IMG/VR virus record: IMGVR_UViG_3300013118_000772
DNA: 64,000 nucleotides
From: a virus
Reading direction: 5' to 3' (one strand)
Notes under the pieces: generated by a model
Database searches by the model: none
The model's input: only the letters and a program-made list of their open reading frames with translations
Told to the model about the DNA's origin: nothing
Made by a program: the position numbers and the translations under genes
In this document: one piece after another, positions 5,717 to 59,536 of the stretch
Numbering within the stretch: position 1 is the stretch's first letter
Layout of the letters: each line of letters begins with the position of its first letter

Positions 5717-5835
5717 TTTAGCTCACCTTCTATATTTTTTAGCATTGATCCACAGAAAGGACATTGGACATAATTATCTTTTACATCAAATCTTAATGGC
5801 TTTTTGCATTTTGGACAATTTCTTTTTACATACAT
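5707..5835 (-). CDS. Zinc-ribbon peptide (42 aa) between dpdA-like gene and polB
   Basis: Manual translation MYVKRNCPKCKKPLRFDVKDNYVQCPFCGSMLKNIEGELKLL; CPKC...CPFC; SD AGGTGA 5 nt upstream of ATG; 3' end overlaps polB N-terminal frame. Confidence 0.4.
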   Translation of the reverse strand: MYVKRNCPKCKKPLRFDVKDNYVQCPFCGSMLKNIEGELKLL

Positions 5836-7005: not shown

Positions 7006-7006
7006 T

Positions 7007-8353
7007 CTATTTCAACTCCTTTCTTATTGCATAAAGTTCATTTTCAAAAAATTCAAATATATCATCAGGAAGTATTATTACATGGTCGTCGTCTATTTGT
7101 ATGTCAAATATCTCTTGATGCCATACAGGGTCAATCCTTCCTAATGTTTGGTACTTATTTGAATATACATAAGCAAGTGTTTCTGCTTCCTTTTTTCCAT
7201 CTTCTGAATTAAAAATAGCATCTAAGTCATCTGTATTAAGTATTTCCCTATGACTACTTAATCCAATTCTTTCTGGGTCTTCTTTTAATCCTTCTAGCAT
7301 AAAAGCTATTCTTTGGCATTTGTCACATTCATCACAAGGAAGCCACATTCCGTTTTTACTTTTCTTTGGAGTAAAACAACTCATTTGATATTGATATAGA
7401 TTAAATATATCATTTCGTATGAATATCTTTTGAATTGCTGATTCTGATAAATTATACACTAATGAAAATACTTGCATATTAGTACCGATTTCTTTAAGAT
7501 AATGACTTATCTTCCTTTCAAAATGGGTTGATTGATCAAAATTATGACCAAGTATTTCATGACCTTTAAATTCAAATGGAACAGTACAATCAAATTCATT
7601 TCCAAAAACTAGATTTCTAATTCCATTAATATTGCAATAAGCCAATTCAATAAAAGCTAGAATAGGTAAATATAAATTATTCTTACCCCATTTAGGTGCA
7701 ATGAAATCAAAAATTTCAAATATATTGGTTTGTATTTTATCTGACCAGGGAATTGCTTTATACATCATTTCACTTGGATCAAATCGATTATCATCAATAA
7801 ATAGAGGATAAGTTCTATAATTCAACTTTTGTAAAGTAGTAAAAGTCATTGTACTTTCTTTACCTCCACTCATGCTAATAGCATATTTATCTTCTTTATT
7901 TAGCTTATATTTAATGGGATCTAATAAAGGAAATTTTTCATATCCTTCCAAGTTAATATCTTTAAATTCTTTGAATTTATTTGTGAATGTAGTTCTCATT
8001 TGGAAATCTAGATCCAAAAGAAATGAATGATCTAATGAATTTAATTTAAATAGATGTCCTTTACTTAATGATTCCCAATTAGTTAAACATTCATTTTTAG
8101 TAAATAAACCTATATTTAATAATTGAACGTGAACTGACATAGCTAATAATTTTAGACTAATCTTACTATTTTCTAAATTACAATATTTTGGAAAGTTAAT
8201 ATAAATTGGTATAATAATAGAATCATTGTTGTACTGTAACATATATTTACAAGTAAATATATTTTTCATAATTTTTAAATCAAATAATGTTACTCTATTA
8301 AATTTAAAATTAGGATTTTCTTCTATATGTTTAATTAATTCTTTTTTATTCAT
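7007..8353 (-). CDS. QueC-family PP-loop ATPase paralog with about 150-aa N-terminal domain of unknown function
   Basis: Variant PP-loop ISMSGGKEST and QueC-like C-terminal zinc cluster C-x13-CDECDKC; start ATG overlaps queC stop (ATGA). Confidence 0.6.
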   Translation of the reverse strand: MNKKELIKHIEENPNFKFNRVTLFDLKIMKNIFTCKYMLQYNNDSIIIPIYINFPKYCNLENSKISLKLLAMSVHVQLLNIGLFTKNECLTNWESLSKGHLFKLNSLDHSFLLDLDFQMRTTFTNKFKEFKDINLEGYEKFPLLDPIKYKLNKEDKYAISMSGGKESTMTFTTLQKLNYRTYPLFIDDNRFDPSEMMYKAIPWSDKIQTNIFEIFDFIAPKWGKNNLYLPILAFIELAYCNINGIRNLVFGNEFDCTVPFEFKGHEILGHNFDQSTHFERKISHYLKEIGTNMQVFSLVYNLSESAIQKIFIRNDIFNLYQYQMSCFTPKKSKNGMWLPCDECDKCQRIAFMLEGLKEDPERIGLSSHREILNTDDLDAIFNSEDGKKEAETLAYVYSNKYQTLGRIDPVWHQEIFDIQIDDDHVIILPDDIFEFFENELYAIRKELK

Positions 8354-9078
8354 TTAGTTAACCTCTTTGCCCTTCTAGCTAATGCAGCTAAAAAATCTTC
8401 TCTTTCATCTTTTCTTGACATTAATTTTTTATTTGCTTCCTCAGTTAGATTTTCAAATGGATCTTTTTCAAATATTTCATGATAGCTTATATTATTTAAC
8501 TCCAAAGCTACTGCTTTTCTTATACATGCTCTACAAACACCACATTCATGTATTTTGCCACTATAACAACTTCTAGCAAAATGTTTTAGATGTGAAACAA
8601 TGCCACCATTAGCTATATATTGCTTAACTATTTGTGCTTTAGTCAAGTGTTTAAATGGCATCTTAATACTAAAAGGGTAATTTTTTTCAAATACTTTATG
8701 TTTATCTATGGCAAAATAATTTAACATTCCTTCTACTTGTGCTTTGAAAATAAAATCCTTATCTTTTGTGCTATCTCCAGCAGTAAAACCCATATAAATT
8801 TCATTTCCATAATTAGCTGCAATTAAAGTCATAATAGAATTTCTATGAGGTATTATTTTATTTTCCATTTCCCATTCTACTAAAGGTAGTTTAAGTATTC
8901 TAACTTTATCTTTTATTTCTTCTGGCATAGCACTTAAATTTTCAAGTTCAATTTTATTGTCTTCTGTTTCTAAATCAAAAAAGATAATTTCATCATATAT
9001 ATCATTAAACAATAAACACCAGCTGTCTAGTCCACCAGAAAATAATAATATCTTTTTAACTTTTAAACTGTCCTGCAT
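8350..9078 (-). CDS. queC: 7-cyano-7-deazaguanine synthase
   Basis: PP-loop LFSGGLDS, zinc motif CYSGKIHECGVCRAC (C-x7-C-x2-C-x2-C), 242 aa. Confidence 0.85.
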   Translation of the reverse strand: MQDSLKVKKILLFSGGLDSWCLLFNDIYDEIIFFDLETEDNKIELENLSAMPEEIKDKVRILKLPLVEWEMENKIIPHRNSIMTLIAANYGNEIYMGFTAGDSTKDKDFIFKAQVEGMLNYFAIDKHKVFEKNYPFSIKMPFKHLTKAQIVKQYIANGGIVSHLKHFARSCYSGKIHECGVCRACIRKAVALELNNISYHEIFEKDPFENLTEEANKKLMSRKDEREDFLAALARRAKRLTK

Positions 9079-9431
9079 TTTATCTTTCCTCCTGAAAGTT
9101 CTCTTATTCCAAAATTTATTTCTTTATCATTATCTATATATTCGTCTATATGATATATTTCACAAAATGCTTTTTTGAATTGAACTACATAAGTATTATG
9201 CCACATCTTTAAAGGATTGTAAATTATCTTTATTTTGTCTGGATTCATTCCAAATCTTTTCAACGTTTTAAGAGTAATTTTTTTATCTTTATAATTTCTA
9301 GCTGTTATAATTATTTTAATATCTTCTATATTTACCTTTGGATTTAACCTATTAAATCTCTTTTTTAACCAATGATTTTTAAATTTAGATATAATTATAG
9401 TCCCATCCAAATCATAAGCTATTTTTTTCAT
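9063..9431 (-). CDS. Small HAD-superfamily phosphatase (possible nucleotidase)
   Basis: HAD motif I AYDLDGTI (DxDGT) at N-terminus; 122 aa. Confidence 0.5.
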   Translation of the reverse strand: MKKIAYDLDGTIIISKFKNHWLKKRFNRLNPKVNIEDIKIIITARNYKDKKITLKTLKRFGMNPDKIKIIYNPLKMWHNTYVVQFKKAFCEIYHIDEYIDNDKEINFGIRELSGGKIKCRTV

Positions 9432-9805
9432 CTTAATCCTTTTTCTAATAAAAAATTTATTATATCATCCAAACCTTCGAAAATTATACTTGAATAATTT
9501 ATTAACCATGGACTTCTCCATTCATCATGAACAAAAACATAAACTTTCTTTCTCAAGCTTTTGGCATAAAACATTTCCATTGCTGTACCCCAACCAGGTT
9601 TTGTTCCGTCAACAATTAAAATATTGGATTGTCTAATATGTTTTCTATCTTTATTAACAATAGCTCTATGTTTACCTTCTTGATATTTATAATCCATTGG
9701 ATTTATTATTTTAAATTTTTTTCTAAGTTTAATTTTAACTCTTCTTCTCCAACTTTCCCTGAAGGGATCACCATCAAGAGTTCCACTGAGATATATTGTT
9801 TTCAT
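9428..9805 (-). CDS. Nucleoside 2-deoxyribosyltransferase / Rcl(DNPH1)-like protein
   Basis: N-terminal IYLSGTL and central LIVDGTKPGWGTAMEMFYA resemble NDT/Rcl family signatures (YLAGP...D-G-T-x-x-E-x-G-x-A); 125 aa. Confidence 0.4.
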   Translation of the reverse strand: MKTIYLSGTLDGDPFRESWRRRVKIKLRKKFKIINPMDYKYQEGKHRAIVNKDRKHIRQSNILIVDGTKPGWGTAMEMFYAKSLRKKVYVFVHDEWRSPWLINYSSIIFEGLDDIINFLLEKGLR

Positions 9806-9874
9806 TAATCCTCACCTACATCTACTGACATAATATTTCCATAATCATCTTCTACAAAGATAATATTTGGGTAG

Positions 9875-10474
9875 TTATCTTCCATTATGAACCCCATTAG
9901 CAAATCTTAAAAATTCCGCTCTTGTTTCTAAATTGTCTTTAAACGCTCCTCTTAGTTCAATTGTGGTCATATATCCCTCTTTTTTAACTCCTCTTATTGA
10001 TTTGCATAAATGTTTTGCTTTTAAAACCAATGCCATGCCATACGGTTGATTATTTTTTCCATTACTCAACTCTTGCCATAAGTAATCTAAAATATCTTTT
10101 GCTAATCGTTCTTGTATTTGTAATCTAGCTGAAAAATAATCTACTACTCTTGCAACTTTACTCAACCCCAATAATTTTCCATTAGAATTTGGTAAATAAG
10201 CAAAATAATAATTCCCTAAAAACCCAATAATATGATGCTCACAAAAGCTATTAAAATTTCCTTCGTCCATAATCATTTGATCATATGTTACACCATCTTT
10301 TCCATTTCTGAATGTAGTTACTTTTGGTAGTTGTTTTGGATCATATCCTCTAAATATTTCTTTCCACATATTAACTACTCTTTTAGGTGTATCTTTTAAA
10401 CCTTCACGATTTGGGTCTTCGCCTATAAACTCTAACATGCTTCTAACAATCCACCTCATATTATCTTCATCCAT
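9875..10474 (-). CDS. folE: GTP cyclohydrolase I
   Basis: FCEHHIIGFLG and LLGLSKVARVVDYFSARLQIQERL match FolE core; 199 aa. Confidence 0.8.
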   Translation of the reverse strand: MDEDNMRWIVRSMLEFIGEDPNREGLKDTPKRVVNMWKEIFRGYDPKQLPKVTTFRNGKDGVTYDQMIMDEGNFNSFCEHHIIGFLGNYYFAYLPNSNGKLLGLSKVARVVDYFSARLQIQERLAKDILDYLWQELSNGKNNQPYGMALVLKAKHLCKSIRGVKKEGYMTTIELRGAFKDNLETRAEFLRFANGVHNGR

Positions 10475-11092
10475 TTATTTTCCCCTCCGTTTAACTCCCC
10501 ATACATCTACATGTAATCTTGGGCTATATCTTATTTTATGTTTGATACAAAAATCCCAAACTTTTCTTGATATTTTTTTATTTTTTTCTTTATCAGATGT
10601 AGTCAATGGCATTAATAATGATGCTTTTTTTGCCATTTCTTTATTAACTTTATCCAGATCAGATGCTATTTTAATATCATAAAAATATCCAAGCCAAAAA
10701 TTATTATAACTCATTAATTGCATCACTCGATTTAATGTATTTGCATCTTTTGGAGATACGCTAATATAATCAAAATAAGATAATTTATCCCTAGTTAATA
10801 AATCTCCATTAGTTTCTAAATGATGACTAAAACTAGGGAGCTGGCTAATTATTTGTGTCATTTCTATAAACTGTAAAAGTCCCTCACCTCCAGTCCAAAC
10901 TACTGTATCTGTCCCTGATTTTTTTATAGTATTGATAATTTTTTTAATGTTAATTTCATCTCCTTCTTTATGATATTTTGTATCACACCAAGAACATGAT
11001 CTGTTACAGCCGCTTAACCGAATAAAAATAGCTGGAATTCCTACAAATTTTCCTTCGCCTTGTAATGAGACAAACATTTCGTTGATTTTCAT
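10475..11092 (-). CDS. queE: 7-carboxy-7-deazaguanine synthase (radical SAM)
   Basis: N-terminal MFVSLQGEG and radical SAM cluster CNRSCSWCDT; 205 aa. Confidence 0.85.
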   Translation of the reverse strand: MKINEMFVSLQGEGKFVGIPAIFIRLSGCNRSCSWCDTKYHKEGDEINIKKIINTIKKSGTDTVVWTGGEGLLQFIEMTQIISQLPSFSHHLETNGDLLTRDKLSYFDYISVSPKDANTLNRVMQLMSYNNFWLGYFYDIKIASDLDKVNKEMAKKASLLMPLTTSDKEKNKKISRKVWDFCIKHKIRYSPRLHVDVWGVKRRGK

Positions 11093-11328
11093 TTCTTTTT
11101 ACCTTTATCCGGGTTAGTCCTATCCCTGGTTATAGTAGTTATGTGCTTTATAATTATCTTCCTTTTGTCAGTCATAATAACAATATTTAAATGATTAAAG
11201 TTCATGCCTCTTATTTTACCTTTAATAGATATTACTTCTTTCCCTTCAAGATATTTAACTTCACATTCCTTACCAATGAATCTTTTTATCTCATCTAAAT
11301 ACGGGTTAACTTCTTTTCCCTTCATCAT
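11089..11328 (-). CDS. Hypothetical small basic protein, possibly Sm-like fold
   Basis: 79 aa; GKIRGMNFNHLNIVIMTD loosely resembles an Sm1 motif; lies between queE and queD. Confidence 0.25.
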   Translation of the reverse strand: MMKGKEVNPYLDEIKRFIGKECEVKYLEGKEVISIKGKIRGMNFNHLNIVIMTDKRKIIIKHITTITRDRTNPDKGKKK

Positions 11329-11770
11329 TTATATTCACCTCTGCATAACAAGTTGGAGTTTCATATAGTCTTATTCTTGAAAGTTTTAAATGCCTCGGTA
11401 GATTTATATCTAAAACATCAAATATATAATTAACCATATTTTCAGCAGTAACATTTTCTTTTAATCTTAATACTTTCTGATCAATTTTTTCTTCCAAATA
11501 TTTAGCAATATCTTCGTCTACGATAGATAAACTATTTATAATTAATGCATGATCAAATTTATCTACTACATATTCTTTAACTACTTCCTTAAAATCTCCA
11601 AAATCTATTACCATTCCATCATCTGATTCAAAAAATTTAAATTTATCTTGTATCAATCCCATTACTTCTACTTCTAATAAATAACTATGTCCATGAATTG
11701 ACCTACATTTTCCTTTATGGTTAACTAATCTATGTGCACATTCCCATCTAAATATTTTACATATTTTCAT
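11306..11770 (-). CDS. queD: 6-carboxy-5,6,7,8-tetrahydropterin synthase
   Basis: CAHRLVNHKGKCRSIHGHSY (Cx-HGH zinc motif); ORF-track start at 11869 is probably an over-extension; likely start MKICKIFRWECAHR. Confidence 0.8.
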   Translation of the reverse strand: MKICKIFRWECAHRLVNHKGKCRSIHGHSYLLEVEVMGLIQDKFKFFESDDGMVIDFGDFKEVVKEYVVDKFDHALIINSLSIVDEDIAKYLEEKIDQKVLRLKENVTAENMVNYIFDVLDINLPRHLKLSRIRLYETPTCYAEVNINDEGKRS

Positions 11771-11975
11771 TTTTATCCCTCTTATAATGTTCTGAAAAAA
11801 TTGCTTTATGATGAGCTTTTGAATGTTTATTGCATTCATTACATTGATATTTCCAATGATAATTATCAATACAATCTTGTCTTAATGTAAGAAATGTTTT
11901 TTTATTTTGACAATCATCACATCTGCCAAATAATCTAATTCCTAATAAATGTAATGTAACCATTTTATTCATCAA
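11757..11975 (-). CDS. Zinc-finger protein (72 aa)
   Basis: CDDCQNKK...CNECNKH Cys pairs; overlaps only the doubtful 5' extension of queD. Confidence 0.3.
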   Translation of the reverse strand: MMNKMVTLHLLGIRLFGRCDDCQNKKTFLTLRQDCIDNYHWKYQCNECNKHSKAHHKAIFSEHYKRDKNENM

Positions 11976-14114: not shown

Positions 14115-15007
14115 ATTGTATTGTCCTTACTAAATCTCAATCCATTCCACTTGGCAGTGGTTCCATTCTTATCATGTCTAATCTCAGCGACGGTATAAAT
14201 TTTTCCTTCCAACGCAATATTGGTTTTACTTTTTTCTATTTCAGCTTTAAGATAAACTGTTCTACCTCCAGATTTATCTTCTTTAATTTCTCTAAAACAT
14301 CTCACACGTTGATATAACATATCCGGTGTTTTTTTCTGCCAATCAGGAATCATATTTCCATCTTCATCATGTTTCATATGTGTTATGAAGAATCGATCAA
14401 GATCCATTAATTTAATTTGCTCAAGTATATCCATGTATTTTTTATTTCTATTTTTCCAATATCTATAATCTATTCCGGAAGTAACATCTTTATTTAACTC
14501 CTCTCGCATGCTATATTCACATATCTTCAAAAATTTATCTAATCCATCAAATATAATAGCCTTAATTTTTAGTTCTTCCATATTTCTTTCTATATAATCC
14601 AAAGCCGCTTTTAATTTAGCAAAAGTAGCTTCATAATCTACATTTTTTACTTCATTTCTTACAAGTGGATTTTTAATAATTATATTTGGATCATTGTCAT
14701 GAAATATAACCTTTAAAGGCGCACAACCTCCATCTAAGTCAAAAATAACTATTTTCATTCCATCTTTTATTTCCTGTTCAGTACGACAATCCATAGCTAT
14801 TCCAGACTTTGCTGTTCCATCATATCCATATAAAGCACAGCATATATTGGAGGATGATTTTTCTATCTTTCCAAATAGCCAATCTTTTATTTTATTATCA
14901 TCATATATGGTTTTTCTTAATTTTTCAATTCTTTCATCACTATTTTTATCTTCTGTCTTTTTTGCTTCCTGACTTACTAAATTATCCCAATCTGACATTT
15001 GCATCAC
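14090..15007 (-). CDS. Hypothetical protein with degenerate P-loop-like motif
   Basis: 305 aa; GYDGTAKSG and hhhhD segments KIVIFDLDG / AIIFDGLDK suggest a RecA/AAA-like NTPase but with non-canonical Walker A. Confidence 0.4.
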   Translation of the reverse strand: MMQMSDWDNLVSQEAKKTEDKNSDERIEKLRKTIYDDNKIKDWLFGKIEKSSSNICCALYGYDGTAKSGIAMDCRTEQEIKDGMKIVIFDLDGGCAPLKVIFHDNDPNIIIKNPLVRNEVKNVDYEATFAKLKAALDYIERNMEELKIKAIIFDGLDKFLKICEYSMREELNKDVTSGIDYRYWKNRNKKYMDILEQIKLMDLDRFFITHMKHDEDGNMIPDWQKKTPDMLYQRVRCFREIKEDKSGGRTVYLKAEIEKSKTNIALEGKIYTVAEIRHDKNGTTAKWNGLRFSKDNTIWQKEEKE

Positions 15008-15009
15008 CT

Positions 15010-16260
15010 CTAAAATGGATCCTCATCCATTATAACTTCTTTTTTCTTAGGAACTTCTCGAACTACTTCTTTTACTTCTGGAGTTTTTTGTACGGGTGTT
15101 TCTTCTTTTGGTTTTTCTTTATTATCATCCATTAATAATTCCTTTTCTGTCATCTTTTTTACTTCAACCCTTGGAAATTTCCAATCGGGATAGGCAAATA
15201 AGCCGCTGGTGAATAATATCAATCTAATATCTCCATCATCACCAGGAGGGGGTAACCAGGGGCGGCCTATTGCCATCACTTTACTATTTTGGGCAAAATC
15301 AATAGACTTTTCTAATTCTTTATCTGCTAAGCATAAAACATTAGCATCATCTACTGAGTCAGATGTGCTACATAAATGAACTTTTATTCTATTTTTATTA
15401 TCAGGCATAAAATTCTGATAAACACATAGCGCATCAGGTATAACTATTATGTTATTAAATTTATCAGGCATTGGACTAGAATCAGGATTTGATTTCTTCT
15501 TTTCAATCCAATTATTAATTTCTTCCCATGTAGTCATATTGTCTTTCAAATAATTAGTAATTAGACCAGTTATACCTAATTTTTTAATTCCTTCTTCCAT
15601 ATATTCATTTGTCGTGGGTAAGAACTCTGTTCTATTTGAATATAGTTCATATATATTAGAATTATCTTCACTATTATTCATAGCTTTAAATGTAGTTATT
15701 TGACCTTTCTTTAAATCGCCACCACACGCATCTCCATCTAACCTTAAAGTAAATCCCTTTACTGATTCTTCATTTACAGGACTACAAACACCATATACAT
15801 TTTGAGTCATGCTTCTATCAGAAGTAGGCATATCTTGTCCTGCCATTTTACTTGGCTGACCATTAATTTTTAATTTAGGCCATAGAGGTATAATTTCACC
15901 TTGTTCTTCTCTTACTATTCCATTATCAAAAACATCTTGAAGAATTGAATTATCACCAGTTTGTTCTGATCTATCCTTCGCTTTATTATATTTATCTAAT
16001 TGATTATTTCTAATATTAAATAATGGATCTCTTGGCTCATCATTTCCAATAATCACTCCAAAAAAAGAAACAGCTCTACTTAAAAATTGACGCTTATAAT
16101 CTATTTTTAGTCTTAATTTTGATTTAGCATTAATATCTTCTTCTTTTTGATTAGGAAATAAACTTTTCATTTCCTGCTTAACTTCCTCAAATTTCTTTTC
16201 CAATTCATTGACCGGCACATTTAATTTCACTGACCATTCTTTTAGAAATTTATTATCCAT
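15010..16260 (-). CDS. Hypothetical protein (416 aa), acidic C-terminal tail
   Basis: Long ORF co-directional and abutting neighbors; no recognizable motif. Confidence 0.4.
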   Translation of the reverse strand: MDNKFLKEWSVKLNVPVNELEKKFEEVKQEMKSLFPNQKEEDINAKSKLRLKIDYKRQFLSRAVSFFGVIIGNDEPRDPLFNIRNNQLDKYNKAKDRSEQTGDNSILQDVFDNGIVREEQGEIIPLWPKLKINGQPSKMAGQDMPTSDRSMTQNVYGVCSPVNEESVKGFTLRLDGDACGGDLKKGQITTFKAMNNSEDNSNIYELYSNRTEFLPTTNEYMEEGIKKLGITGLITNYLKDNMTTWEEINNWIEKKKSNPDSSPMPDKFNNIIVIPDALCVYQNFMPDNKNRIKVHLCSTSDSVDDANVLCLADKELEKSIDFAQNSKVMAIGRPWLPPPGDDGDIRLILFTSGLFAYPDWKFPRVEVKKMTEKELLMDDNKEKPKEETPVQKTPEVKEVVREVPKKKEVIMDEDPF

Positions 16261-24429: not shown

Positions 24430-24780
24430 ATGACTAAGAAAAAGGTTAAACCTATTTTGCTAAAAACTAAAAAAAGTTCTAATAAAAAAGGACCAATCTC
24501 TAAGTTTTTTGATATGACAGTTTATGAATTTTTGGTAGAGTTAATATTATTTATTATTGTATTGACTATTTCATCATTATTATATTATTTTACAATATTT
24601 ATGCTTGGATTTATTACTTTGTTCCTTCTTTGGTTTTTTGGAAATTCAAATATGGGGATAAATTTATTTCTTTTCGATGATGTTAATATATTTAATATAA
24701 CTAACATTATTAGAGTTGCTATGTTTTTAATTATATTTGTAAAAGTTTTACTCAAAATAAAAGGTGATAAAAATAATTAA
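24430..24780 (+). CDS. Hypothetical membrane protein (116 aa, 2-3 TM)
   Basis: Hydrophobic helices; basic N-terminus. Confidence 0.35.
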   Translation: MTKKKVKPILLKTKKSSNKKGPISKFFDMTVYEFLVELILFIIVLTISSLLYYFTIFMLGFITLFLLWFFGNSNMGINLFLFDDVNIFNITNIIRVAMFLIIFVKVLLKIKGDKNN

Positions 24781-25495
24781 CTCAATGGCTAAAGGAAAAG
24801 GATATGAACGCGAAATAGTTAATAAACTTAAAGAAGGATTTAAAATACCCTTTCATAGAGTTCCGATGTCGGGTGGTTTCCAAACTATTCAAAATACTAC
24901 CGACTCTAGATTTTCAGGAGATGTTTTTACTGAGGATAAAGAGTTTAATGATAAATATGACGTTGTAATAGAATGTAAAAAAATAGGATATGTTTTAGAT
25001 GTTGAAAGTATAGCTTTAGCAAATCAAGAAAAGAAAAATTGTACTATATATGGTTGGATTAAACAATGTAAAAGAGAATCAAATGATAAGAATTTTTGGT
25101 TAATATTCTCATGGAATAGATTAAAATGTGATATTATTATTAGGGGATTAAATTTAGGTGGTGGGGATTGGCATATCTTCCCACCATTAACTCTTAAATA
25201 TTTTATAAGTAAAGAATTAGAAAAAGATTTTGGTGATAGAAAAAGCGTATTTATTAATAAGATAGATGATGTAGATGATGTCAATGATGAGGTAAGAAAA
25301 AACTTTGAACAAAAACATGGAATGTCTATGAAGAATTATTTTAAAGCCAATAAATTTATATATAGAGCTAAATATAGTTTATTAAATGAAATATCTAATA
25401 AGAGAAGTGAATGGATAGAGGAAAATAAAAAGTTAATAGGTCTTACTGAATTTGTATGGTTCCATATTATGAGTAAAGAAGAAAGGGAAAAATAA
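24764..25495 (+). CDS. hjc: Holliday junction resolvase Hjc-like nuclease with C-terminal extension
   Basis: N-terminal KGKGYEREIVNKL...GF...RVPMSGG...SGDVF...YDVVIECKK follows the Hjc G-x-ER / SG / D / E-x-K pattern; 243 aa vs about 130-140 for canonical Hjc. Confidence 0.5.
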   Translation: MIKIINSMAKGKGYEREIVNKLKEGFKIPFHRVPMSGGFQTIQNTTDSRFSGDVFTEDKEFNDKYDVVIECKKIGYVLDVESIALANQEKKNCTIYGWIKQCKRESNDKNFWLIFSWNRLKCDIIIRGLNLGGGDWHIFPPLTLKYFISKELEKDFGDRKSVFINKIDDVDDVNDEVRKNFEQKHGMSMKNYFKANKFIYRAKYSLLNEISNKRSEWIEENKKLIGLTEFVWFHIMSKEEREK

Positions 25496-34679: not shown

Positions 34680-34991
34680 GTGAAAAAAATGAAAAAGTTG
34701 CAACGTATATCAACTGTTATAATAGTTGACAACAGAACACAGGGAGAAAAGTTAAAGGACGAAATAACTAACTTTATCAATAACAGTTATAAAAAAGGAA
34801 TAAATGAAATTAAGTGCTTAATTAAAAAAGATAAATCGTTTACTAGGTTATCTATTTTAATTTTGGTAGATTCAAATGTATTAAATGCTAGACAAATACA
34901 AAACTCAGTAGAAGCATATACAAAAATGAATTTTAATATATCAGAAGAACATATAGAAGCCCATTTTAGAACGGTTTACAATAGAACATGA
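34680..34991 (+). CDS. Hypothetical protein (103 aa)
   Basis: ORF with GTG/ATG start in co-directional array. Confidence 0.3.
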   Translation: MKKMKKLQRISTVIIVDNRTQGEKLKDEITNFINNSYKKGINEIKCLIKKDKSFTRLSILILVDSNVLNARQIQNSVEAYTKMNFNISEEHIEAHFRTVYNRT

Positions 34992-44115: not shown

Positions 44116-44131
44116 GAATGTGTTGTAAATA

Positions 44132-44155
44132 TTTTTTATTTTTTTTATTTTTTAT
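44132..44155 (+). terminator. Long T-rich tract (terminator candidate)
   Basis: TTTTTTATTTTTTTTATTTTTTATT a few bases after stop codon. Confidence 0.4.
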
Positions 44156-44248
44156 TAATAAAATCTAGTAAATTTATTTTTTTTATTCATTTAAGACGTT
44201 AAAAAATAATTAAATTTATAAAAAGATTAAATAATTATTATATTTAAT

Positions 44249-44395
44249 ATGGAAAGATTAAATTTTGGGGATAGTGTTACCGTTAATGTAATTAGAAATT
44301 CTAGTTCAGGCAAAATAGTTTTGATTTTGGCAATATTTTTAATCATCATTATATCATCATATTTAGTTTACAAAATATCTAAAAGGAAAGAATGA
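44249..44395 (+). CDS. Small TM peptide (48 aa)
   Basis: Manual translation MERLNFGDSVTVNVIRNSSSGKIVLILAIFLIIIISSYLVYKISKRKE. Confidence 0.25.
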   Translation: MERLNFGDSVTVNVIRNSSSGKIVLILAIFLIIIISSYLVYKISKRKE

Positions 44396-44399
44396 TAAT

Positions 44400-44573
44400 A
44401 TGGATTTATTTCAAAGGATTTTAAGATCGCTGGGTATATCTATCATATTTATTATTTTAGGTATAATATTTTCAAGTAGCATAACATTAAGCTGGTTATT
44501 TGGAATTTTTATATTCTATTTAGATTTTGTAATTAGAAATGATTTGGAAAAATTAATGGAGGGAGTTAAATGA
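44400..44573 (+). CDS. Small TM peptide (57 aa)
   Basis: Manual translation MDLFQRILRSLGISIIFIILGIIFSSSITLSWLFGIFIFYLDFVIRNDLEKLMEGVK; ATGA overlap with next gene. Confidence 0.25.
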   Translation: MDLFQRILRSLGISIIFIILGIIFSSSITLSWLFGIFIFYLDFVIRNDLEKLMEGVK

Positions 44574-45094
44574 AAAAGCCAAATAAATTTTTAGGCATTA
44601 GCATGGGTATGGCTCTTATACTAGTTTTAGCTTTAGGAGCTATTCAAAGTAACAAAACTGTGCCTAATGGAGAAGAGGTGAGATATTATTCCAACGTTTG
44701 TGCATATAAAAACAATGTGTTGATAGATTGCAATAGTAATGTTGTAACTAACACAGGAAAGGATTTTATTAAAACCTCAATTGGACAGGGAGCATCTAAT
44801 AACGTAAGTGAATTAGCTATTGGAAATGGGACAACTCCAGTTGTAGCAAGTACTAGTTTAGATGGAGAAAAAACAGCAAATGGACTTGAAAGAGTTAATG
44901 GTACTTATTATAACAATGGAGTAGGAAATTGGAGTATTGTATACACATGGACATCAACAGCTGATGCACAAGTATTAAATACTACAGGTCTTTATGCTAT
45001 TGGTGGTAACTTGTTTGCTGGTACAACATTTACTGAGACAACATTGCAGACTGATGACCAAATAACAATTAACTATACAATATCAGTAAGTTAA
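44570..45094 (+). CDS. Secreted structural protein (174 aa)
   Basis: N-terminal signal/anchor MKKPNKFLGISMGMALILVLALGA; Thr/Asn-rich. Confidence 0.45.
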   Translation: MKKPNKFLGISMGMALILVLALGAIQSNKTVPNGEEVRYYSNVCAYKNNVLIDCNSNVVTNTGKDFIKTSIGQGASNNVSELAIGNGTTPVVASTSLDGEKTANGLERVNGTYYNNGVGNWSIVYTWTSTADAQVLNTTGLYAIGGNLFAGTTFTETTLQTDDQITINYTISVS

Positions 45095-45106
45095 GAGGTG
45101 TAGCTA

Positions 45107-48100
45107 ATTGAAACGGCTTCCCTCCTTAAAAAAAAAGTATTTTTTGTTTTTTTATTAGTTTTTACTCTTTCTAATTTTGTATTTGCCGAGAAAGGAATTA
45201 ATTGGATAGATGAAAATAATGAGATAACCATATACAGTTATCCTGTTAATTATTTAGATGAAAATACTTATAAGCCAATTAATACTACTATAATTCAATC
45301 AGACGTTTGTGATTTTGATTATTGTGTAAGAAGTGGAATTTATTACGTAGATTTTAAATCAAATTCTAACTTAAATAATATAGTTAAATTTATCTATAAA
45401 GGGCAAACAATTTATTATACTCCAGAAAAATTACAATATATAGTAAATAATAAAAAAAGTCTAATTGCTAATCCCTCTAAGGTGACAGGAATTTCAGAAG
45501 GTAATAAATTTATTTATCCTAAAATATATGGTGAAGGATTAGACTTAAGTTATGATTATGAAAATACTTTTCTAAAAGAACAGTTAATTATTGACCGATT
45601 TGATAGATTGCCTGAACCTGGTAACCAGTTAACAAAAGACAATGAAGAAATTTACTTAAGTTTAGAATTTGAATTGGATACTAATGATAATGTGAATAAT
45701 AAATTTAGAGATAAAGAAAGCAAAGTCTTATGGGATAAGCAATCATTAAGGGAGTTTAAAAAAATAGAAGTTTTAAACGAAAATAATGAAGTATTGACCT
45801 TTCTTCCTGAACCTTATGCTATTGATTCAAAAGGAAATAAAATTAAACTACAATATCAATTTAAAAAAGAAGGTCAAAAGTTAATCATATCTATTTTAAC
45901 TCCATATAGTTGGATATCAGATATTAAAAGAGTTTATCCTATCTATATAGATCCTTCTACGACTTTAAATTATAATAGTGGTGGAATGGATTCTGAGATT
46001 GATAGTGATACTCCTAATTCCAATTTTGGTTCAGCTACTAACATGGAAGTTTATGAAGTTGATGTTTCGAGATCATTAATTTGGTTTAATATGTCTTCAA
46101 TTATGGAAAAAGCAGTTTATAGCTCAAGTATGACTATATATAAAGAAAGTGGTTCACTTGCTACTATTACAGTTTACGTGCATAGAATACTTAACGAATG
46201 GATAGAAAATCAAGTAACCTGGAACAATAGGAAAACAGGCACTGCTTGGGATACTGCAGGTGGAGATTTTAGTTCAATAGCAGAAGTATCTCTAAAAGAA
46301 TATTTTGGATCAGGCTGGCACACATGGAATATGACAAATGTAACTAAGGATATTGTTAAAGGCGTATATACTAACTATGGTTGGATTTTAACAGACAATC
46401 CAACCGTGTACCAAGTTAGACTTTCCACACAGGATAATACTATTGGAGGAGATATAAGAAGACCATATATGACAGTTAATTATTATGATTCAGTAACTAT
46501 AGATTCAGCATTAATGTTTCCAAATAATCCTTTATCATCAGATAACATTACATGTAATACAACTCCTGTAGCTGATGCTAGTACAGTTAAAATAGAATTT
46601 AGATGGTTTAATTCCACACATGAGTTATTATATGGCAACGTTAGTGGAGTTAGTAATAATACAAATTCTTTAATAACCACACTTGGAAGTGGAAATTATA
46701 CCACAGGTAATACTATAAACTGCTCATTAAGAGGATATTATAATTCCGATATTGGAGGATATAGTGATTGGAAATCATCATTGAAAACTATTAGTAGTCA
46801 ACCTCCTACTTGGGATGAAATAATAACATCTGTAAACATAAATCATAGTAATAACTTAAGTATTCAATTAAATGCCACTGATCCTGATTTAGACGCTTTA
46901 ACGTGGAACATAAATGAGTCAATGGCAACCATTAACCAAACTGGATATTTATTTGATAATCCAGCTATAACTGACTATGGAAATTACTCTTTGCAAATTA
47001 ATGTTACTGATGGATCTAATACTATAGAAATGAACATTAGTTATGAGGTAATAAATAACCAACCATTAATAGATAATTTAGATGTTGGTCCTCAGAGTGA
47101 CCTACTACCTACTGAACTACATGATCTTGTCTGTAATTATAATATTAGTGATGTTGATTCTGATAATTTAAATATATCTTTCGATTGGTATAATAATGGT
47201 GCTAGTCAGAGTATTAATAATGGAACTTTAGGATACGGAAATACTAGTATAGGTGAGTTATGGAATTGTAGCATAAATATAACTGATACTGTTCTTAGTA
47301 ATTATCAACAATCTAGCTCAGTTGAGATAAAAAACTTTTATGGTAATTTTAGCGTTGACTGGATAACTCCAACTGTTAATTCCACTCATGGATATTATAA
47401 GTTAATATTATATCAATATAATATAAGCTGTATAAATGGATATACTTGTGGTAATGTAAATGTTACTCTTGATCCAATTACAACTTATAAGTTTAACTCT
47501 ACATATGAAAATATAGACTTTTTTGCTTATGAAAAAGAAGGAACAGGTGGAGATATATATGCTGCTGCAACCGTCAATATAACTCTAAATCCTAATTTAG
47601 ATAGCAATGATGGAAGTTTCCTTCCTTCCTCATCTGGTGGTGGACATAGTTTACAAAGATTTATTGCTTGTGTAAATGAGAAAATAGATAGAATAGAAAA
47701 TATAACATGGATGTACGATGGATCTTCTTCCTCCGGGGTAGGAGATGATATGATAATGTTTATTTACAACTTTACCAATTCTAGTTGGGATTATTTTGAT
47801 ATAATAGAAATTGATTATGATATAACACTTGAATATAATAGTAGCTCAACCGATGATTTAATAAATGATTCTGGATGTTTGTTAATGGAAATTGCAACTG
47901 ATGAAATAGGTTCCTCCATTAAAACAGATTATGTTCAATTAAGTGTGGAATATACAGAATTTAAAGGTTTAATTGATAATGACCCAAACTCAGAGCCATT
48001 TTATCATAATGGAACTGAAATAAACTATGAGTGTGGAACATTAAATCATAACGAGAGTTGCATTGCTAGTTTTTGGGTCAATGCTACAGGAGAAACTGAT

Positions 48101-50344
48101 TTATATGAATTTTTCACTATTATATCTTCAAATTATACAAACATGGTAGATGTTGAATCTAGTTTTTTATATATTAATTTAACTGTTCCAATTGTTAATA
48201 ATCGTTCTGGTTTTGAAAATATGGTCCTTGCTGATGTATCTGGTGATTTGAAAGATATTAGTAGATTTAAATTTGATTCATTATCCTCTAATGATTTTTT
48301 TATCAGTAAACTATTGGCTGATAGAAATATTTTTGATTCTTCTTTAACCGGTGAGATATTATATAGATTATCTAATATATTTCGATCCAAAGAAGATTAT
48401 AATAGTTTAAATGATGAATTATATAAAAGTAGGTCATTAAGATTATTTACTTATGATAAAAGTAATATAAATGAAATTTTAGTTAATGAATTTTGGTATA
48501 AAAGATATATTAATAACCTAATTTCATACGATGATTATTTAAATGTATTATTACTTACTGAAAGAAACATAGATAGTTCCATTTCAATAACCGATTTTAA
48601 TAATAAAATATATATGACAAAATTTAATGTATACGAAGTCGAATCATTACAAGACTTTATTGATAAAGAAGCTTTGTTTAATAGAAAGTTATCTGATATA
48701 GTCACTATAAATGAGCTAGATAATATATTATACTCATATAAAAGAAATAATATAGAATATATTTCATATGGAGAATTTTTAAATGATTTATCTATTCATT
48801 TTATTGAAACAGAAGATAGTTCAGGTATAGAAGATAATATTAAAAGAAAAATAGGATTACTACTAGATGAAGAATTGTCTATTAATGATATTAGATTGTT
48901 GTTACTAGGTTTAAAAAGAGATGGATTAGAAAGCATTTCCATATCTGAATTATTAACAAAAACATCGTTTTTCAATAGTGATATTTTGGATTCTTTTAGT
49001 ATATTTGATCAACTGATAAAAAATAAAGTTATATTAAGAAGATTAGATTTAGTTTTGAATATAAATGAAGATTCATTTTTTAAAAGCAATATATTTAGAT
49101 TTTTATATGAAGATATTTCAATTCAAGAATATATTAATAGAATAGGAGTATTTAAAAGAAATATTTTTTCATCAATTGATATTATAGATATAGAAAAAGT
49201 AATAAATCAAAAGAAACGATTAGGTTATGATTCAATAGAAGTGTTGGAACTACTAGATAATTTAGGTTTATATGATAGAGATAGTCAAGATTCAATTGAT
49301 TTGTTAGAGGAACTGGAAAGAAAGGGAATTTTAAGTAGCTCAATTTTCGATTCTGTTTCCTTATCTGAACTAGAAAAAATAATTAATAACTATAATCGAA
49401 ATAAACAATTAAGTGTAAATATAAATGAAATTTTAGATGATTTAGGATTATTTAATCCAAACATATCAGAAGAAGTAAATGTAATAGATATATCATCAAT
49501 TTTATATAACTTGTTTAGATACGGTGATGATCAGGTAATTTTAACAGAGGATTTCAGCTTTATAGATATTTTGTATTACAAATTTCCTTTATATAATGAT
49601 ATTTTAGTTAATGATGATATAATAAGAAATTCAGATTTTCAAAGATTGTTAACTGATGCTCTTTCTTCTAACGACAATATAAATAGATATTACTCTACTA
49701 TTATGATTTTTTATGATCTAGTACAAATACTTCCATCTGCTAATGTTAATAATTTATTTTTTAATTCAATTAATTTAAATATTGATCTATTTGATATAAC
49801 CAAAAGCATGAGTTTATTTTCGAGAAATATTGATTCCAATTTTGGATTATCAGAATCAATAAACAAAGCAATTAATTTTAACAGAAAACTTTTTGAAAAT
49901 TTATCCAGCTTGGATTTTATAACCAAAAGAAGAGTTTCATTTAGAAATATTAATTCTTTTATAAACATCAATGAATTTATAAATAAAACTAGAAGTGCAG
50001 TTTCACCCGTATCAGTAATAACTCCTACTTCTAGTAGTCCTTATGAACAATATAAGATGGAGGTTTTTATTAATGAAACAATGCCAGTAGAAATAATTGT
50101 ATTGGGAAAAGGAATTTTAGTTCCACCTGAATGGGCAAGAATAGTAAACAATGTTAAATGGCTATTTCAAAAAGAAAATATTGGAATTTTAATTCCTCTT
50201 TTAATATTAATTTTAATTGTTATAACAGGATCAGTATTTGTATTAATAAAAAAGAAAGTTAAAAGTAAAGGTAAAAGAGTAAAAGTTAAAAGGAAGAAAA
50301 ATGATAAAGTTAGATATATCAAACGGCGTAATAATGTTAAATAG
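45107..50344 (+). CDS. Giant surface glycoprotein (about 1745 aa): N-terminal signal peptide, beta-rich glycosylated domains, C-terminal degenerate tandem repeats, C-terminal TM anchor
   Basis: ORF track begins at GTG 45482, but the frame is open from 45104 and encodes a textbook signal peptide (KKKVFFVFLLVFTLSNFVFA then EKG). Proposed ATT start at 45107-45109 behind SD GAGGTG. C-terminal IGILIPLLILILIVITGSVFVLI then KKKVKSKGKR. Confidence 0.55.
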   Translation: METASLLKKKVFFVFLLVFTLSNFVFAEKGINWIDENNEITIYSYPVNYLDENTYKPINTTIIQSDVCDFDYCVRSGIYYVDFKSNSNLNNIVKFIYKGQTIYYTPEKLQYIVNNKKSLIANPSKVTGISEGNKFIYPKIYGEGLDLSYDYENTFLKEQLIIDRFDRLPEPGNQLTKDNEEIYLSLEFELDTNDNVNNKFRDKESKVLWDKQSLREFKKIEVLNENNEVLTFLPEPYAIDSKGNKIKLQYQFKKEGQKLIISILTPYSWISDIKRVYPIYIDPSTTLNYNSGGMDSEIDSDTPNSNFGSATNMEVYEVDVSRSLIWFNMSSIMEKAVYSSSMTIYKESGSLATITVYVHRILNEWIENQVTWNNRKTGTAWDTAGGDFSSIAEVSLKEYFGSGWHTWNMTNVTKDIVKGVYTNYGWILTDNPTVYQVRLSTQDNTIGGDIRRPYMTVNYYDSVTIDSALMFPNNPLSSDNITCNTTPVADASTVKIEFRWFNSTHELLYGNVSGVSNNTNSLITTLGSGNYTTGNTINCSLRGYYNSDIGGYSDWKSSLKTISSQPPTWDEIITSVNINHSNNLSIQLNATDPDLDALTWNINESMATINQTGYLFDNPAITDYGNYSLQINVTDGSNTIEMNISYEVINNQPLIDNLDVGPQSDLLPTELHDLVCNYNISDVDSDNLNISFDWYNNGASQSINNGTLGYGNTSIGELWNCSINITDTVLSNYQQSSSVEIKNFYGNFSVDWITPTVNSTHGYYKLILYQYNISCINGYTCGNVNVTLDPITTYKFNSTYENIDFFAYEKEGTGGDIYAAATVNITLNPNLDSNDGSFLPSSSGGGHSLQRFIACVNEKIDRIENITWMYDGSSSSGVGDDMIMFIYNFTNSSWDYFDIIEIDYDITLEYNSSSTDDLINDSGCLLMEIATDEIGSSIKTDYVQLSVEYTEFKGLIDNDPNSEPFYHNGTEINYECGTLNHNESCIASFWVNATGETDLYEFFTIISSNYTNMVDVESSFLYINLTVPIVNNRSGFENMVLADVSGDLKDISRFKFDSLSSNDFFISKLLADRNIFDSSLTGEILYRLSNIFRSKEDYNSLNDELYKSRSLRLFTYDKSNINEILVNEFWYKRYINNLISYDDYLNVLLLTERNIDSSISITDFNNKIYMTKFNVYEVESLQDFIDKEALFNRKLSDIVTINELDNILYSYKRNNIEYISYGEFLNDLSIHFIETEDSSGIEDNIKRKIGLLLDEELSINDIRLLLLGLKRDGLESISISELLTKTSFFNSDILDSFSIFDQLIKNKVILRRLDLVLNINEDSFFKSNIFRFLYEDISIQEYINRIGVFKRNIFSSIDIIDIEKVINQKKRLGYDSIEVLELLDNLGLYDRDSQDSIDLLEELERKGILSSSIFDSVSLSELEKIINNYNRNKQLSVNINEILDDLGLFNPNISEEVNVIDISSILYNLFRYGDDQVILTEDFSFIDILYYKFPLYNDILVNDDIIRNSDFQRLLTDALSSNDNINRYYSTIMIFYDLVQILPSANVNNLFFNSINLNIDLFDITKSMSLFSRNIDSNFGLSESINKAINFNRKLFENLSSLDFITKRRVSFRNINSFININEFINKTRSAVSPVSVITPTSSSPYEQYKMEVFINETMPVEIIVLGKGILVPPEWARIVNNVKWLFQKENIGILIPLLILILIVITGSVFVLIKKKVKSKGKRVKVKRKKNDKVRYIKRRNNVK

Positions 50345-57522: not shown

Positions 57523-59208
57523 ATGAAACTTAATAAAACCAGTTTAGGATTAATTTTAATATTATCAATTATGTTAATTATTAGTGGATGTAGCACTGAG
57601 TTAAGTATAGCTAGTAATGAGTTTAAATTACCTCCCTATCCTCCTGAACGTAAAGTAGTTGAGCCTGTCTGGGGAACTATGTATTGCAAATACTCAGAAA
57701 ATTTATATGAAAGTTCCAAGTTAGGAATGAATAAATGTACTGAAGAAGTTTGTGGTGGAAATTATGACCCTGGATTGTTCGAAGATAAGGATAATAAATA
57801 TGTTTATTATTCCATAGTTAATTGTCCAATAGAAGCAGGATCAAGAGAATGTACTTTTAGTTTTGATAATTTTAAATGCCCAGCAAATACTTTCAAATAC
57901 ATGGCCATTGGTAAAAGAGGATCACCAGAAAAAATAGAAGATAATTTTAATGACAATTTAAGAATTAATGATGACAATGTACTTGTACAGATTTTTTGTC
58001 AAACAAATTTTTTAAATATTCGTAAAGAAATGACCTCTGCACCTGTTTTAGTAGTTGAACAGGATAAAAGGGGGATTTGGATTGAAACAGAAGGATTTGG
58101 AAGACAAGGTTGGATGAGTGGCTCATTCCCAGATTGTAGATGGGCAAGTTCAAATTACGTTAGTGAATTAATTAAAACCCAAAAGAAAGACAGTGACATT
58201 GATGTAATGTCTCATATTAAATGGGACGAAAGTATTGACCTTAATGTAGGATGGAGAGAAGTGCCTGCAGTTGGAAATGTCAATATAATGGGTAAATATA
58301 AAAATAAAGATGTAGTTTGTAGAGTAAGTGCAACACACGGTGGATCAGAATTATTAGAGGTTCAAGAATTTTCCACTAAAGGTGATAGAGATTATTATTT
58401 TATGGCTGGAAATATTTTAGATGCCGGAGCTGATTATTGTTGTAGTAATAACCAATGTTCAAAAGGTTTAGTATGTGAAGATTATAAATGTGTACGGGAT
58501 GCAGAATGTGAATCTGGAGAGTGTAATTGGTGGCAAAAAGGTCAGACCATTAGTAAAGATAGATGTATACATATAAATGGAGTATCTAAATTAGAAACAG
58601 TTAAATGTGATAATGATGCCTGTGTACAAAATTCATATGAAAAAGTAGCTTGTTGTCAAAATGATTGTCCAGCAAATTATGAATGTGATTATGATGTAGG
58701 ATGTGTATATGTTGGTAATAAAGTAGATTGTCCTACTGGATATTGTTGTGAAAAAGATCATGTCAAATATACTCAACAGAATTGTGCATCTAACTTAAAA
58801 TGTTGCATCGGAGATACACCTGATGATAATAAATTAGGGATATGTAAAGTTTCATGTGATATTGATAAAGAAATATGTGATGACGGAGAAGATAATGACG
58901 GCGATGGTTTAGTTGACTTAGCTGATCCTGATTGTAAAAAAAATGATCCAGCCATTAATCTTATTTGGATTATATGGATGATGACTATATTGGGCTTAAT
59001 AGGAGGAATATTTTTAGTCTGGAATAGTGAAGATGAAATATGGATCAAAGCAATAAAGGTAATACTATTAACCGCAGTAGGGGGTATTCTGGGTACAATA
59101 GTTGTGGTAATAATAAAAGCTATTATTACCCTTCTATTGGCACTTAAATTAGCATTAGCTCCATTGGCTAAAATAACAGATTTTTTAAGTAAAATATTTG
59201 GAGGTTGA
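57523..59208 (+). CDS. Cys-rich lipoprotein with DxDxDG calcium-binding-like motif and C-terminal TM helices
   Basis: Lipobox-like IISGCSTE; more than 40 Cys; EICDDGEDNDGDGLVDLADPDC; C-terminal hydrophobic helices. Confidence 0.45.
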   Translation: MKLNKTSLGLILILSIMLIISGCSTELSIASNEFKLPPYPPERKVVEPVWGTMYCKYSENLYESSKLGMNKCTEEVCGGNYDPGLFEDKDNKYVYYSIVNCPIEAGSRECTFSFDNFKCPANTFKYMAIGKRGSPEKIEDNFNDNLRINDDNVLVQIFCQTNFLNIRKEMTSAPVLVVEQDKRGIWIETEGFGRQGWMSGSFPDCRWASSNYVSELIKTQKKDSDIDVMSHIKWDESIDLNVGWREVPAVGNVNIMGKYKNKDVVCRVSATHGGSELLEVQEFSTKGDRDYYFMAGNILDAGADYCCSNNQCSKGLVCEDYKCVRDAECESGECNWWQKGQTISKDRCIHINGVSKLETVKCDNDACVQNSYEKVACCQNDCPANYECDYDVGCVYVGNKVDCPTGYCCEKDHVKYTQQNCASNLKCCIGDTPDDNKLGICKVSCDIDKEICDDGEDNDGDGLVDLADPDCKKNDPAINLIWIIWMMTILGLIGGIFLVWNSEDEIWIKAIKVILLTAVGGILGTIVVVIIKAIITLLLALKLALAPLAKITDFLSKIFGG

Positions 59209-59536
59209 AATGTCTGACGAAGGAAGTTTATTAGGGGCAGTTGGTTGGATGTTATTACTATTACTTTTGTTAGGATGGATACCAATCTTAGGAGCTTTAA
59301 TTGCAGGATTCGTAGGTGGTAGAAAAGCTTATACTGTAGGCAAGGCTATATTAGCTTCTTTAATAACTGCATTTATAATAGCTATTCCTGGAATATTGTT
59401 AATATCATTACTAACAGGATTATTTGGAATAGAAACATTCCTCACAATTGGATTAGGATTATCATTGGTATTGGTATTGGCTTCATCAATATTAACTATG
59501 ATAGGAGCAATTATAGGAGCTTTAACAGCTGATTAA
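59198..59536 (+). CDS. Polytopic small membrane protein (112 aa)
   Basis: Gly/Leu/Ile-rich helices; GC-richer. Confidence 0.35.
   Translation: MEVEMSDEGSLLGAVGWMLLLLLLLGWIPILGALIAGFVGGRKAYTVGKAILASLITAFIIAIPGILLISLLTGLFGIETFLTIGLGLSLVLVLASSILTMIGAIIGALTAD

Follow-up and report, generated by a model that had tools for sequence, protein, structure and literature searches.

Where translation of the giant surface-protein gene begins, and on which codon, is the question raised by the region around position 45,100 of a 64,000-nucleotide stretch of viral DNA (IMG/VR record IMGVR_UViG_3300013118_000772), the whole of which is referred to here as the window. Gene finders start this gene at GTG 45482–45484, yielding a 1620-aa open reading frame (ORF). 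An initial annotation had proposed instead that a signal peptide is encoded upstream of this first canonical start, behind an in-frame ATT served by a Shine–Dalgarno (SD) motif, and that the same arrangement recurs at polB. The true N-terminus lies at an SD-served site at ~45107, ~125 codons upstream of the annotated GTG. AUU at this site is the favoured initiation codon of the giant gene, a reading to which we give about an even chance.

Start site of the giant surface-protein gene

The giant gene is preceded on the plus strand by a gene of 174 aa (44570–45094; signal or transmembrane N-terminus; phrog_5417, unknown function), the TAA of which (45092–45094) directly abuts the SD of the giant gene, GAGGTG (45095–45100, plus strand). 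This SD matches the AGGAGGTGA template over 6 nt, with an aligned spacing of 6 to the ATT at 45107–45109 and of 7 to a TTG that overlaps it, and the layout GAGGTG-N6-ATG is also found at the genes at 26975 and 35002. The letters of the site read TAA(45092-94) GAGGTG TAG CTA ATT GAA ACG GCT TCC CTC CTT AAA AAA AAA GTA TTT. The in-frame TAG (45101–45103), two codons upstream of the ATT, closes the giant frame, which is open from 45104, encodes (L)IETASLLKKKVFFVFLLVFTLSNFVFA/EKGINW and runs continuously into the 1620-aa ORF called from GTG 45482. The initial annotation had placed both the opening of the frame and the ATT, 6 nt after GAGGTG, at the right coordinates, and its count of 125 added residues with no canonical start agrees with the codons between 45107 and 45481, where ATG, GTG and TTG make up 0 of 125. 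Read from the ATT, the full ORF spans 45107–50344 on the plus strand (1745 codons plus stop), and the GTG at 45482 is an internal Val codon with no SD.

The extension is coding sequence. Alignments with five homologues (P0001–P0005; 28–45% identity) span the 126 residues upstream of the GTG, and 13 of these positions are invariant. Four of the five start M-K-x-K followed by a hydrophobic stretch, the fifth starts from a GTG behind GGGAGGT, and these starts are ordinary and in frame. Because the upstream codons encode a signal peptide and a conserved N-terminal region common to homologues, GTG 45482 is not the start, and the placement of the signal peptide upstream of it was borne out. By inspection, the region 45107–45187 (plus strand) has the composition of a Sec-type signal peptide, taken here as a positive n-region, an h-region of 10–15 hydrophobic residues and small residues at −3/−1. 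Its n-region ends KKK, followed by the h-region VFFVFLLVFTL and the c-region SNFVFA, with predicted cleavage before EKGINW, and the homologues have the same layout. An AlphaFold model of the N-terminal 499 aa was of low confidence (pLDDT 41, with 55–80 over residues 100–270) and too weak for a fold search; it contains an N-terminal helix (residues 2–28) and places strands 101–122 and 130–163 in one beta region spanning residue 127, the position of the GTG codon. A protein search found no relative of the giant protein above 45% amino acid identity, and IMG/VR protein scans for the giant gene and polB returned no matches.

Sequence fidelity at this site was assessed across assemblies. The 51 nt around the giant start are identical in SAMN10231893, SAMN10231894 and JGI 3300009128, each of which carries a private single-nucleotide polymorphism (SNP) elsewhere. 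The initial annotation had allowed that a sequence correction might create a canonical start, and homopolymers are indeed error-prone on some platforms; on this reading the true sequence would have ATG, or ten A residues (A10) in place of the nine (A9) at this site. Assembly error is excluded because the three assemblies, distinguishable by SNPs elsewhere, have an identical start sequence. The polB start site is likewise identical in four loci, and an artefact of assembly or sequencing is hardly credible.

The polB parallel and the rarity of the layout

The same succession of stop, SD and ATT that the initial annotation had reported at polB was found on the minus strand, where AAGGTGA (5729–5723), the TGA of which is an in-frame stop, is followed by GCT AAA and ATT 5716–5714. 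With its N-terminus restored, polB spans 3170–5716 (minus strand). The called ATG 5260, which has no SD, leaves out both the ExoI motif YLDIEV and a conserved N-terminal region with FKPYFY, each of them encoded upstream of it. Relatives of polB (52–57% identity) start M-I-I-x-E-Y, which aligns to P-I-Q-V-E-Y of the window four or five codons downstream of the ATT, placing the polB N-terminus within a few codons of ATT 5716. The 9-mer AGAAGGTGA at this site is also the polB ribosome-binding site of the relative L016. The TTG that overlaps the polB ATT (5715) reads TTG CTG TAA, M-L-stop, and is a dead end. The ATT is the only workable start at polB, and AUU initiation there, which would give the N-terminus MAVTPIQVEYEV / MAVTPIQVEYEVTNEVPTIVIFGR, is highly likely. 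Read-through of TGA or an alternative genetic code was considered for polB and rejected, as TGA ends 17 genes.

The layout is rare in this genome. Just two of ~65 genes, the giant gene (126) and polB (154), stay open for more than 26 codons ahead of a first canonical start. SDs matching AGGAGGTGA precede ~47 of 64 genes at a modal aligned spacing of 7, with 30 of the 47 at 5–8; the ATT of the giant gene lies at 6 and that of polB at 7. ATT follows an SD of 6 nt or more at aligned spacing 5–8 just 11 times on 64.2 kb of coding strand, so the probability of chance placement within the first codons after an in-frame stop is ~1e-3 or less per gene. A genome-wide scan for this pattern, as the initial annotation had suggested, with a near-cognate codon and a long ORF following, returned the giant gene and polB plus two trivial sites. 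The positions after SDs of at least 6 nt at spacing 5–8 hold 28 ATG, 3 TTG and 1 GTG, and two of the three TTG are the AUUG sites of the giant gene and polB. Because no gene start in the window combines a strong SD with TTG or GTG, TTG is no more expected than ATT at these strong-SD sites. The shortage of ATG, GTG and TTG within the extensions was rejected as a signal in itself, runs of 120–226 codons free of them occurring inside many genes.

Other starts in the window bear on its use of start codons. The start of the RusA-like resolvase (24760–24790) is ambiguous: the called GTG 24764 lies within the SD AAGGTGA, an ATA at 24773 has a spacing of 6 and the first ATG stands at too great a distance, making this a possible third non-canonical start. 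In the ORFs at 59198–59215, 15001–15010 (minus strand) and 34680–34691, which are listed from TTG or GTG, a strong SD is followed by an ATG a few codons further downstream; the element seems essentially devoid of convincing TTG or GTG starts.

A 42-aa Zn-ribbon ORF (5707–5835, minus strand) overlaps the polB start in the +1 frame, and this overlap admits a reading in which both genes rely on −1 frameshifting. PolB would be made as a fusion from the 42-aa ORF by a shift on CUA_AAA_U, with the junction peptide NIEGELKIAVTPIQVEYEV, the giant protein would come from a mini-ORF that starts at the overlapping TTG, and both ATTs would be coincidental. In both genes an ORF with a canonical start and SD does overlap the long ORF, which is in the −1 frame with respect to it. 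The hypothetical fusion would also be colinear with P0020, which carries an N-terminal CPxC...CPxC ribbon and is present in two assemblies (37% identity over 190 aa, E 3e-35, small gaps). However, the polB site offers no tandem-slippery heptamer, just A4 with poor A-site re-pairing, and its SD stands 3–4 nt from the slip codon, unlike that of dnaX −1 stimulation. That an SD of 6 nt or more stands at start-codon spacing would have to be a coincidence of ~1e-3, and the 9-mer containing it is common to the polB site of L016. The ~40-aa CPxC...CPxC ribbon is a free-standing 40-aa gene downstream of polB in the closer relative L007 (5060–5182), and is also found in L008 (2501–2640); given the free-standing gene in L007, the 42-aa ORF of the window can be a complete, separate gene. 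Most polB relatives have no ribbon on PolB. Shared frameshifting is therefore considered improbable. Across the virus group the ribbon moves around polB, being upstream of and overlapping it in the window, downstream in L007 and fused in P0020.

All gene callers chose the truncated ORFs, and metagenomic genomes can hold defective alleles. The upstream regions might on these grounds be untranslated, either through loss of start codons in a decaying lineage or because truncated products are made from GTG 45482 and ATG 5260. Such products would nevertheless be a giant protein with no signal peptide and only part of a conserved domain and a PolB with no ExoI motif, both started without an SD. Neither a stop nor a frameshift interrupts the extensions over their 125 and 152 codons, and the same sequence dominates at least three samples in near-complete genomes of 75–77 kb. 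The loss of both the replicase and the structural-protein start is unlikely in a thriving population, and a non-functional extension is judged quite improbable. The public gene models of both genes are firmly regarded as truncated: in every public copy, gene finders have cut the replicase so that its ExoI motif is lost and the largest structural protein so that its signal peptide is lost, and localisation or function calls made from these models are wrong.

Probable AUU initiation and a possible slippage route

In the favoured reading, GAGGUG (45095–45100), directly after the upstream stop, would place the P site on the in-frame AUU 45107, which initiator tRNA would decode as a near-cognate start. 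The product would be a 1745-aa precursor with the Sec-type signal peptide (M)ETASLLKKK-VFFVFLLVFTL-SNFVFA, cleaved before EKGINW, followed in order by the conserved beta-rich N-terminal region, a CBM96-like domain, an Asn/Ser-rich region and a C-terminal membrane anchor. Expression would be kept low jointly by the weak start codon, by pairing of the SD in a hairpin with a downstream CCCUCC and by dependence on ribosomes from the upstream gene, and polB would likewise start at AUU 5716. By analogy with infC and pcnB, AUU initiation would cover both genes by one known mechanism. The initial annotation had gone further and suggested, on the strength of two independent occurrences, that AUU is a bona fide, perhaps regulatory, initiation codon. 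The SD-served upstream start and the polB parallel speak for this, and both sites are real; they are, however, less independent than supposed, as both read AUUG and each admits a frameshift reading, and the giant gene has a second route through the overlapping TTG and A9.

The predicted hairpin (45091–45129, plus strand) pairs UUAAGAGGUG with CCCUCCUUAA, placing the start codon in a 9-nt loop, and its 3′ arm runs into A9. Its predicted energy is −9.3 kcal/mol, with a z of −1.2 against shuffles of its own sequence, which is not significant. The probability that the SD is unpaired is 0.19 at the giant start, as against 0.62 ± 0.21 at 60 other starts, making it the most sequestered of the 61, with no other below 0.2. 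The anti-SD-like hexamer CCTCCT (45121–45126, plus strand), of which the window's coding strand has just 6 copies, lies within the stretch ACGGCTTCCCTCC, which pairs with the SD and uses very rare codons whichever frame is read (CTC, 0.6 per thousand; CGG, 0.5 per thousand). Since the stop of the upstream gene falls within the 5′ arm, translational coupling with the 174-aa gene is suggested by the model, and ribosomes finishing that gene would open the hairpin. From these elements we infer a weakly expressed, coupled gene.

Several observations weigh against AUU as the codon used, among them that AUUG also contains a canonical start. The TTG at 45108–45110 overlaps the ATT at the modal SD spacing of 7, and UUG initiates far better than AUU in tested systems and should compete for the same SD. 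The short +1-frame ORF that it opens (45108–45158, plus strand) encodes MKRLPSLKKKYFLFFY, ends at TAG 45156–45158 and is the zero frame of the slippage route. The A9 run (45128–45136, plus strand) reads AAA AAA AAA (KKK) in the giant frame and tTA AAA AAA AAG (A_AAA_AAG) in the TTG frame. Whereas TTG with A9 stops after 16 codons, TTG with A10 gives a 1745-aa ORF and TTG with A7 one of 1744 aa; one additional A, or a −1 shift at A_AAA_AAG, leads from the TTG to MKRLPSLKKKVFFV..., with a more typical MKR n-region. Long A runs are otherwise avoided: in genes, runs of at least 9 A number 2 against 12.7 ± 2.1 expected from synonymous-codon shuffling (~6-fold depletion), and the AAA AAA AAA spelling is used in one of 13 KKK tripeptides, the one at the giant start. 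The A9 run has no explanation under initiation at AUU alone. A viable path through TTG and A9 would seldom arise by coincidence if AUU were the start, while an in-frame ATT with an open frame would easily do so if TTG were. Further, no convincing ATT-type start was found elsewhere in ~80 kb of related viral DNA, there is no close relative (none above 45% identity) to show the codon at the ATT position, and use of AUU presupposes a host that tolerates it. At polB, a −1 shift in the window would reproduce colinearly the architecture of the relative P0020, whose PolB carries the Zn ribbon as an in-frame fusion.

The chief alternative at the giant gene is accordingly initiation at UUG 45108 in the +1 frame, giving M-K-R-L-P-S-L-K-K-K, followed by an A10 transcript or a −1 shift on A_AAA_AAG; without the shift this route yields a 16-aa peptide, and it could run alongside AUU initiation. 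The heptamer (45131–45137 in the TTG frame) is a classic shift-prone sequence that fits the X_XXY_YYZ slippery pattern, and the zero-frame stop falls 7 codons past the run, as is usual at programmed shift sites. A homopolymer of 9 A is of the kind associated with transcriptional slippage, and one added A joins the TTG to the giant ORF. Secreted proteins of the element usually begin M-K-[KR], as do the homologues. The avoidance of long A runs extends to other lengths (at least 10 A, 0 observed against 6.4 expected; at least 8 A, 7 against 26) and to T (at least 8, 1 against 6.5) under the same shuffling; it implies that slippage matters in the host, yet A9 has been kept here. It is also indirect evidence that polymerase slippage costs the virus.

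The UUG route, however, needs two rare things at once, a TTG start and recoding. TTG opens no other SD-led gene of the window, and starts that depend on slippage are a priori uncommon. No stimulatory structure was found downstream of the heptamer, where the AU-rich region 45125–45230 folds no better than shuffles (z −1.0), and no SD-like element lies 10–14 nt upstream of it, the sole SD being ~30 nt upstream. The hairpin described above was rejected as a slippage stimulator: in the known example, a Roseiflexus insertion sequence (IS), hairpin-stimulated slippage deletes a base, which is the wrong direction here. Run length is not polymorphic among the three independent, SNP-distinguishable assemblies, all of which have A9 and none A10. 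Scans of metagenome_contigs, genome_contigs and viral_contigs with DNA patterns for other lengths of the A run gave no match, but the element is absent from these collections and the negatives carry no weight on polymorphism. The route also fails at polB, where TTG leads straight into CTG TAA and no run other than an A4 is present, so that a second mechanism would be needed there. A likelihood comparison of codon usage in the two frames over 45110–45136 gave no discrimination (log10 L −16.65 against −17.14). The UUG route is a serious, though less probable, alternative to AUU initiation at the giant gene. After cleavage at FVFA/EKG, both routes would lead to the same mature protein, and a mature N-terminus of EKGINW would confirm the upstream start but not distinguish AUU from the UUG route.

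It is also conceivable, if doubtful, that AUUG and A9 form a deliberate two-route volume control of the surface protein, in which A9 would give low expression from the weak AUU, A10 high expression from the stronger UUG, and A8 or A11 none. The A10 form may arise by RNA polymerase slippage or by DNA replication slippage, and the variable residues may be removed with the signal peptide, giving one mature protein from every productive route. Such control, if it exists, would make this viral spike gene phase- or dose-variable by means of start codons that overlap. Use of AUU would mean a pair of such starts in one viral genome of ~75 kb, an unusually clear natural case of weak-start tuning outside infC and pcnB, and would bear on the start-codon stringency of the host. 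If the A9 route is used, recoding or slippage would take place inside a signal peptide, of which few cases are known.

Two A9 runs, and no longer A run, occur on the coding strand, one at the giant start and one inside polB. The polB run (4825–4833, minus strand) directly follows an SD-like AGGTGA (GGT GAA AAA AAA ATA), and a slip of +1 or −1 there would truncate PolB at ~297–305 aa, so that it kept the N-terminal region and a portion of the exonuclease region. Each run falls in one of the two genes with no canonical start.

The giant protein and the element

Downstream of the conserved N-terminal region, the giant protein contains a CBM96/disaggregatase-repeat-like domain (45989–46441, plus strand; residues 296–446) that matches PF24517 with an E-value of 5e-10 and 39.8 bits, above the gathering cut-off of 26. 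A hydrophobic C-terminal transmembrane segment (50180–50254, plus strand) is followed by a Lys/Arg-rich tail, in keeping with the membrane anchor described in the initial annotation; the heavy glycosylation described with it is suggested by an excess of N-X-S/T sequons (46 against ~30 expected). A PDB sequence search with the whole giant protein returned nothing significant, and the P0001 and P0003 loci show no synteny with the 174-aa upstream gene.

The window has a G+C content of 28% and matches near-complete contigs of 69–77 kb from several metagenomes. Its virus-type genes include an archaeal-type PolB, an RFC-like clamp loader, a PD-(D/E)XK nuclease, an ATP-dependent ligase and the RusA-like resolvase, together with a HerA/FtsK-type ATPase and many secreted or membrane proteins. 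A full 7-deazaguanine DNA-modification module (5845–11869, minus strand; TGT/DpdA-like, QueC, FolE, QueE and QueD) adjoins polB and is syntenic in the relatives L014 and L016. In L016, a 275-nt gap between the TGT-like gene and polB (4440–4714) has no called gene and contains G+C-rich patches; it may hold a structured RNA or the remains of an ORF. Neither a tRNA nor an Rfam family was found in the window, an INPHARED blastn search and a polB scan of GTDB genomes for the host gave no match, and promoter and terminator scans of the window were at chance level.

Ahead of the giant gene, at 44130–44252, oligo-T runs after the preceding gene are followed by a TTTATAAA box ~28 nt before ATG 44250. 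The arrangement resembles an archaeal terminator, promoter and leaderless first cistron, although AT-richness makes the match weak evidence for the domain of the host. At 57523–57600, the N-terminus MKLNKTSLGLILILSIMLIISGCST, with a lipobox-like LIISGC, suggests a lipoprotein. Many genes of the structural module have signal peptides or transmembrane segments, which hints at a membrane-containing virion.

Comparison with known systems

Hairpins that sequester an SD mediate translational coupling in classic operon and RNA-phage cases. The predicted hairpin of the giant gene is similar in that the SD pairs with a downstream anti-SD-like sequence and the upstream stop lies in the 5′ arm. Unlike the classic hairpins, it is a prediction of modest stability (−9.3 kcal/mol).

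Overlapping start codons of the type AUGUG or GUGUG are described as initiating two frames in E. coli (PMC9841429). The likeness lies in two overlapping start-type codons in different frames behind one SD; AUUG differs in combining a near-cognate with a canonical codon, and its two frames reconverge on one protein only via the A run.

In bacteria and Methanococcales, Mg-chelatase overlaps share a conserved A_AAA_AAR heptamer, and runs of 9 A or T cause transcriptional slippage in bacteria (PMC5009743). As in dnaX-type −1 frameshifting and the Mg-chelatase overlaps, the zero frame of the TTG mini-ORF contains the same heptamer, with a stop soon after and the long ORF in the −1 frame. Unlike them, the giant gene has no downstream stem-loop and no SD-like element at 10–14 nt; a shift would come within a signal peptide, 10 codons from initiation, and the sole product, not an additional one, would depend on it. 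With the transcriptional slippage of Thermus dnaX, Shigella mxiE/spa and endosymbiont poly(A) rescue, the giant gene shares an A9 run at which one added A restores the frame from a canonical start, and the avoidance of A runs here suggests that the polymerase slips. It differs from those cases in having an in-frame route that needs no slippage.

In E. coli, infC and pcnB are confirmed to start with AUU, which works at 1–2% of AUG and holds expression down (bioRxiv 10.1101/063800). Like infC (which encodes IF3) and pcnB, the giant gene has a weak, in-frame AUU at normal SD spacing that is the only possible in-frame start of a conserved N-terminus. The giant gene also has a route from a canonical start in another frame; polB has essentially none. 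The two systems differ in that the candidate AUU starts described here lie in a viral genome, in a replicase gene and a gene for a secreted structural protein, and are each overlapped by a UUG. Both AUU starts and recoding at A runs are of known kinds, and the giant gene is a probable member of one of them, set in the unusual context of AUUG, A9 and a predicted hairpin.

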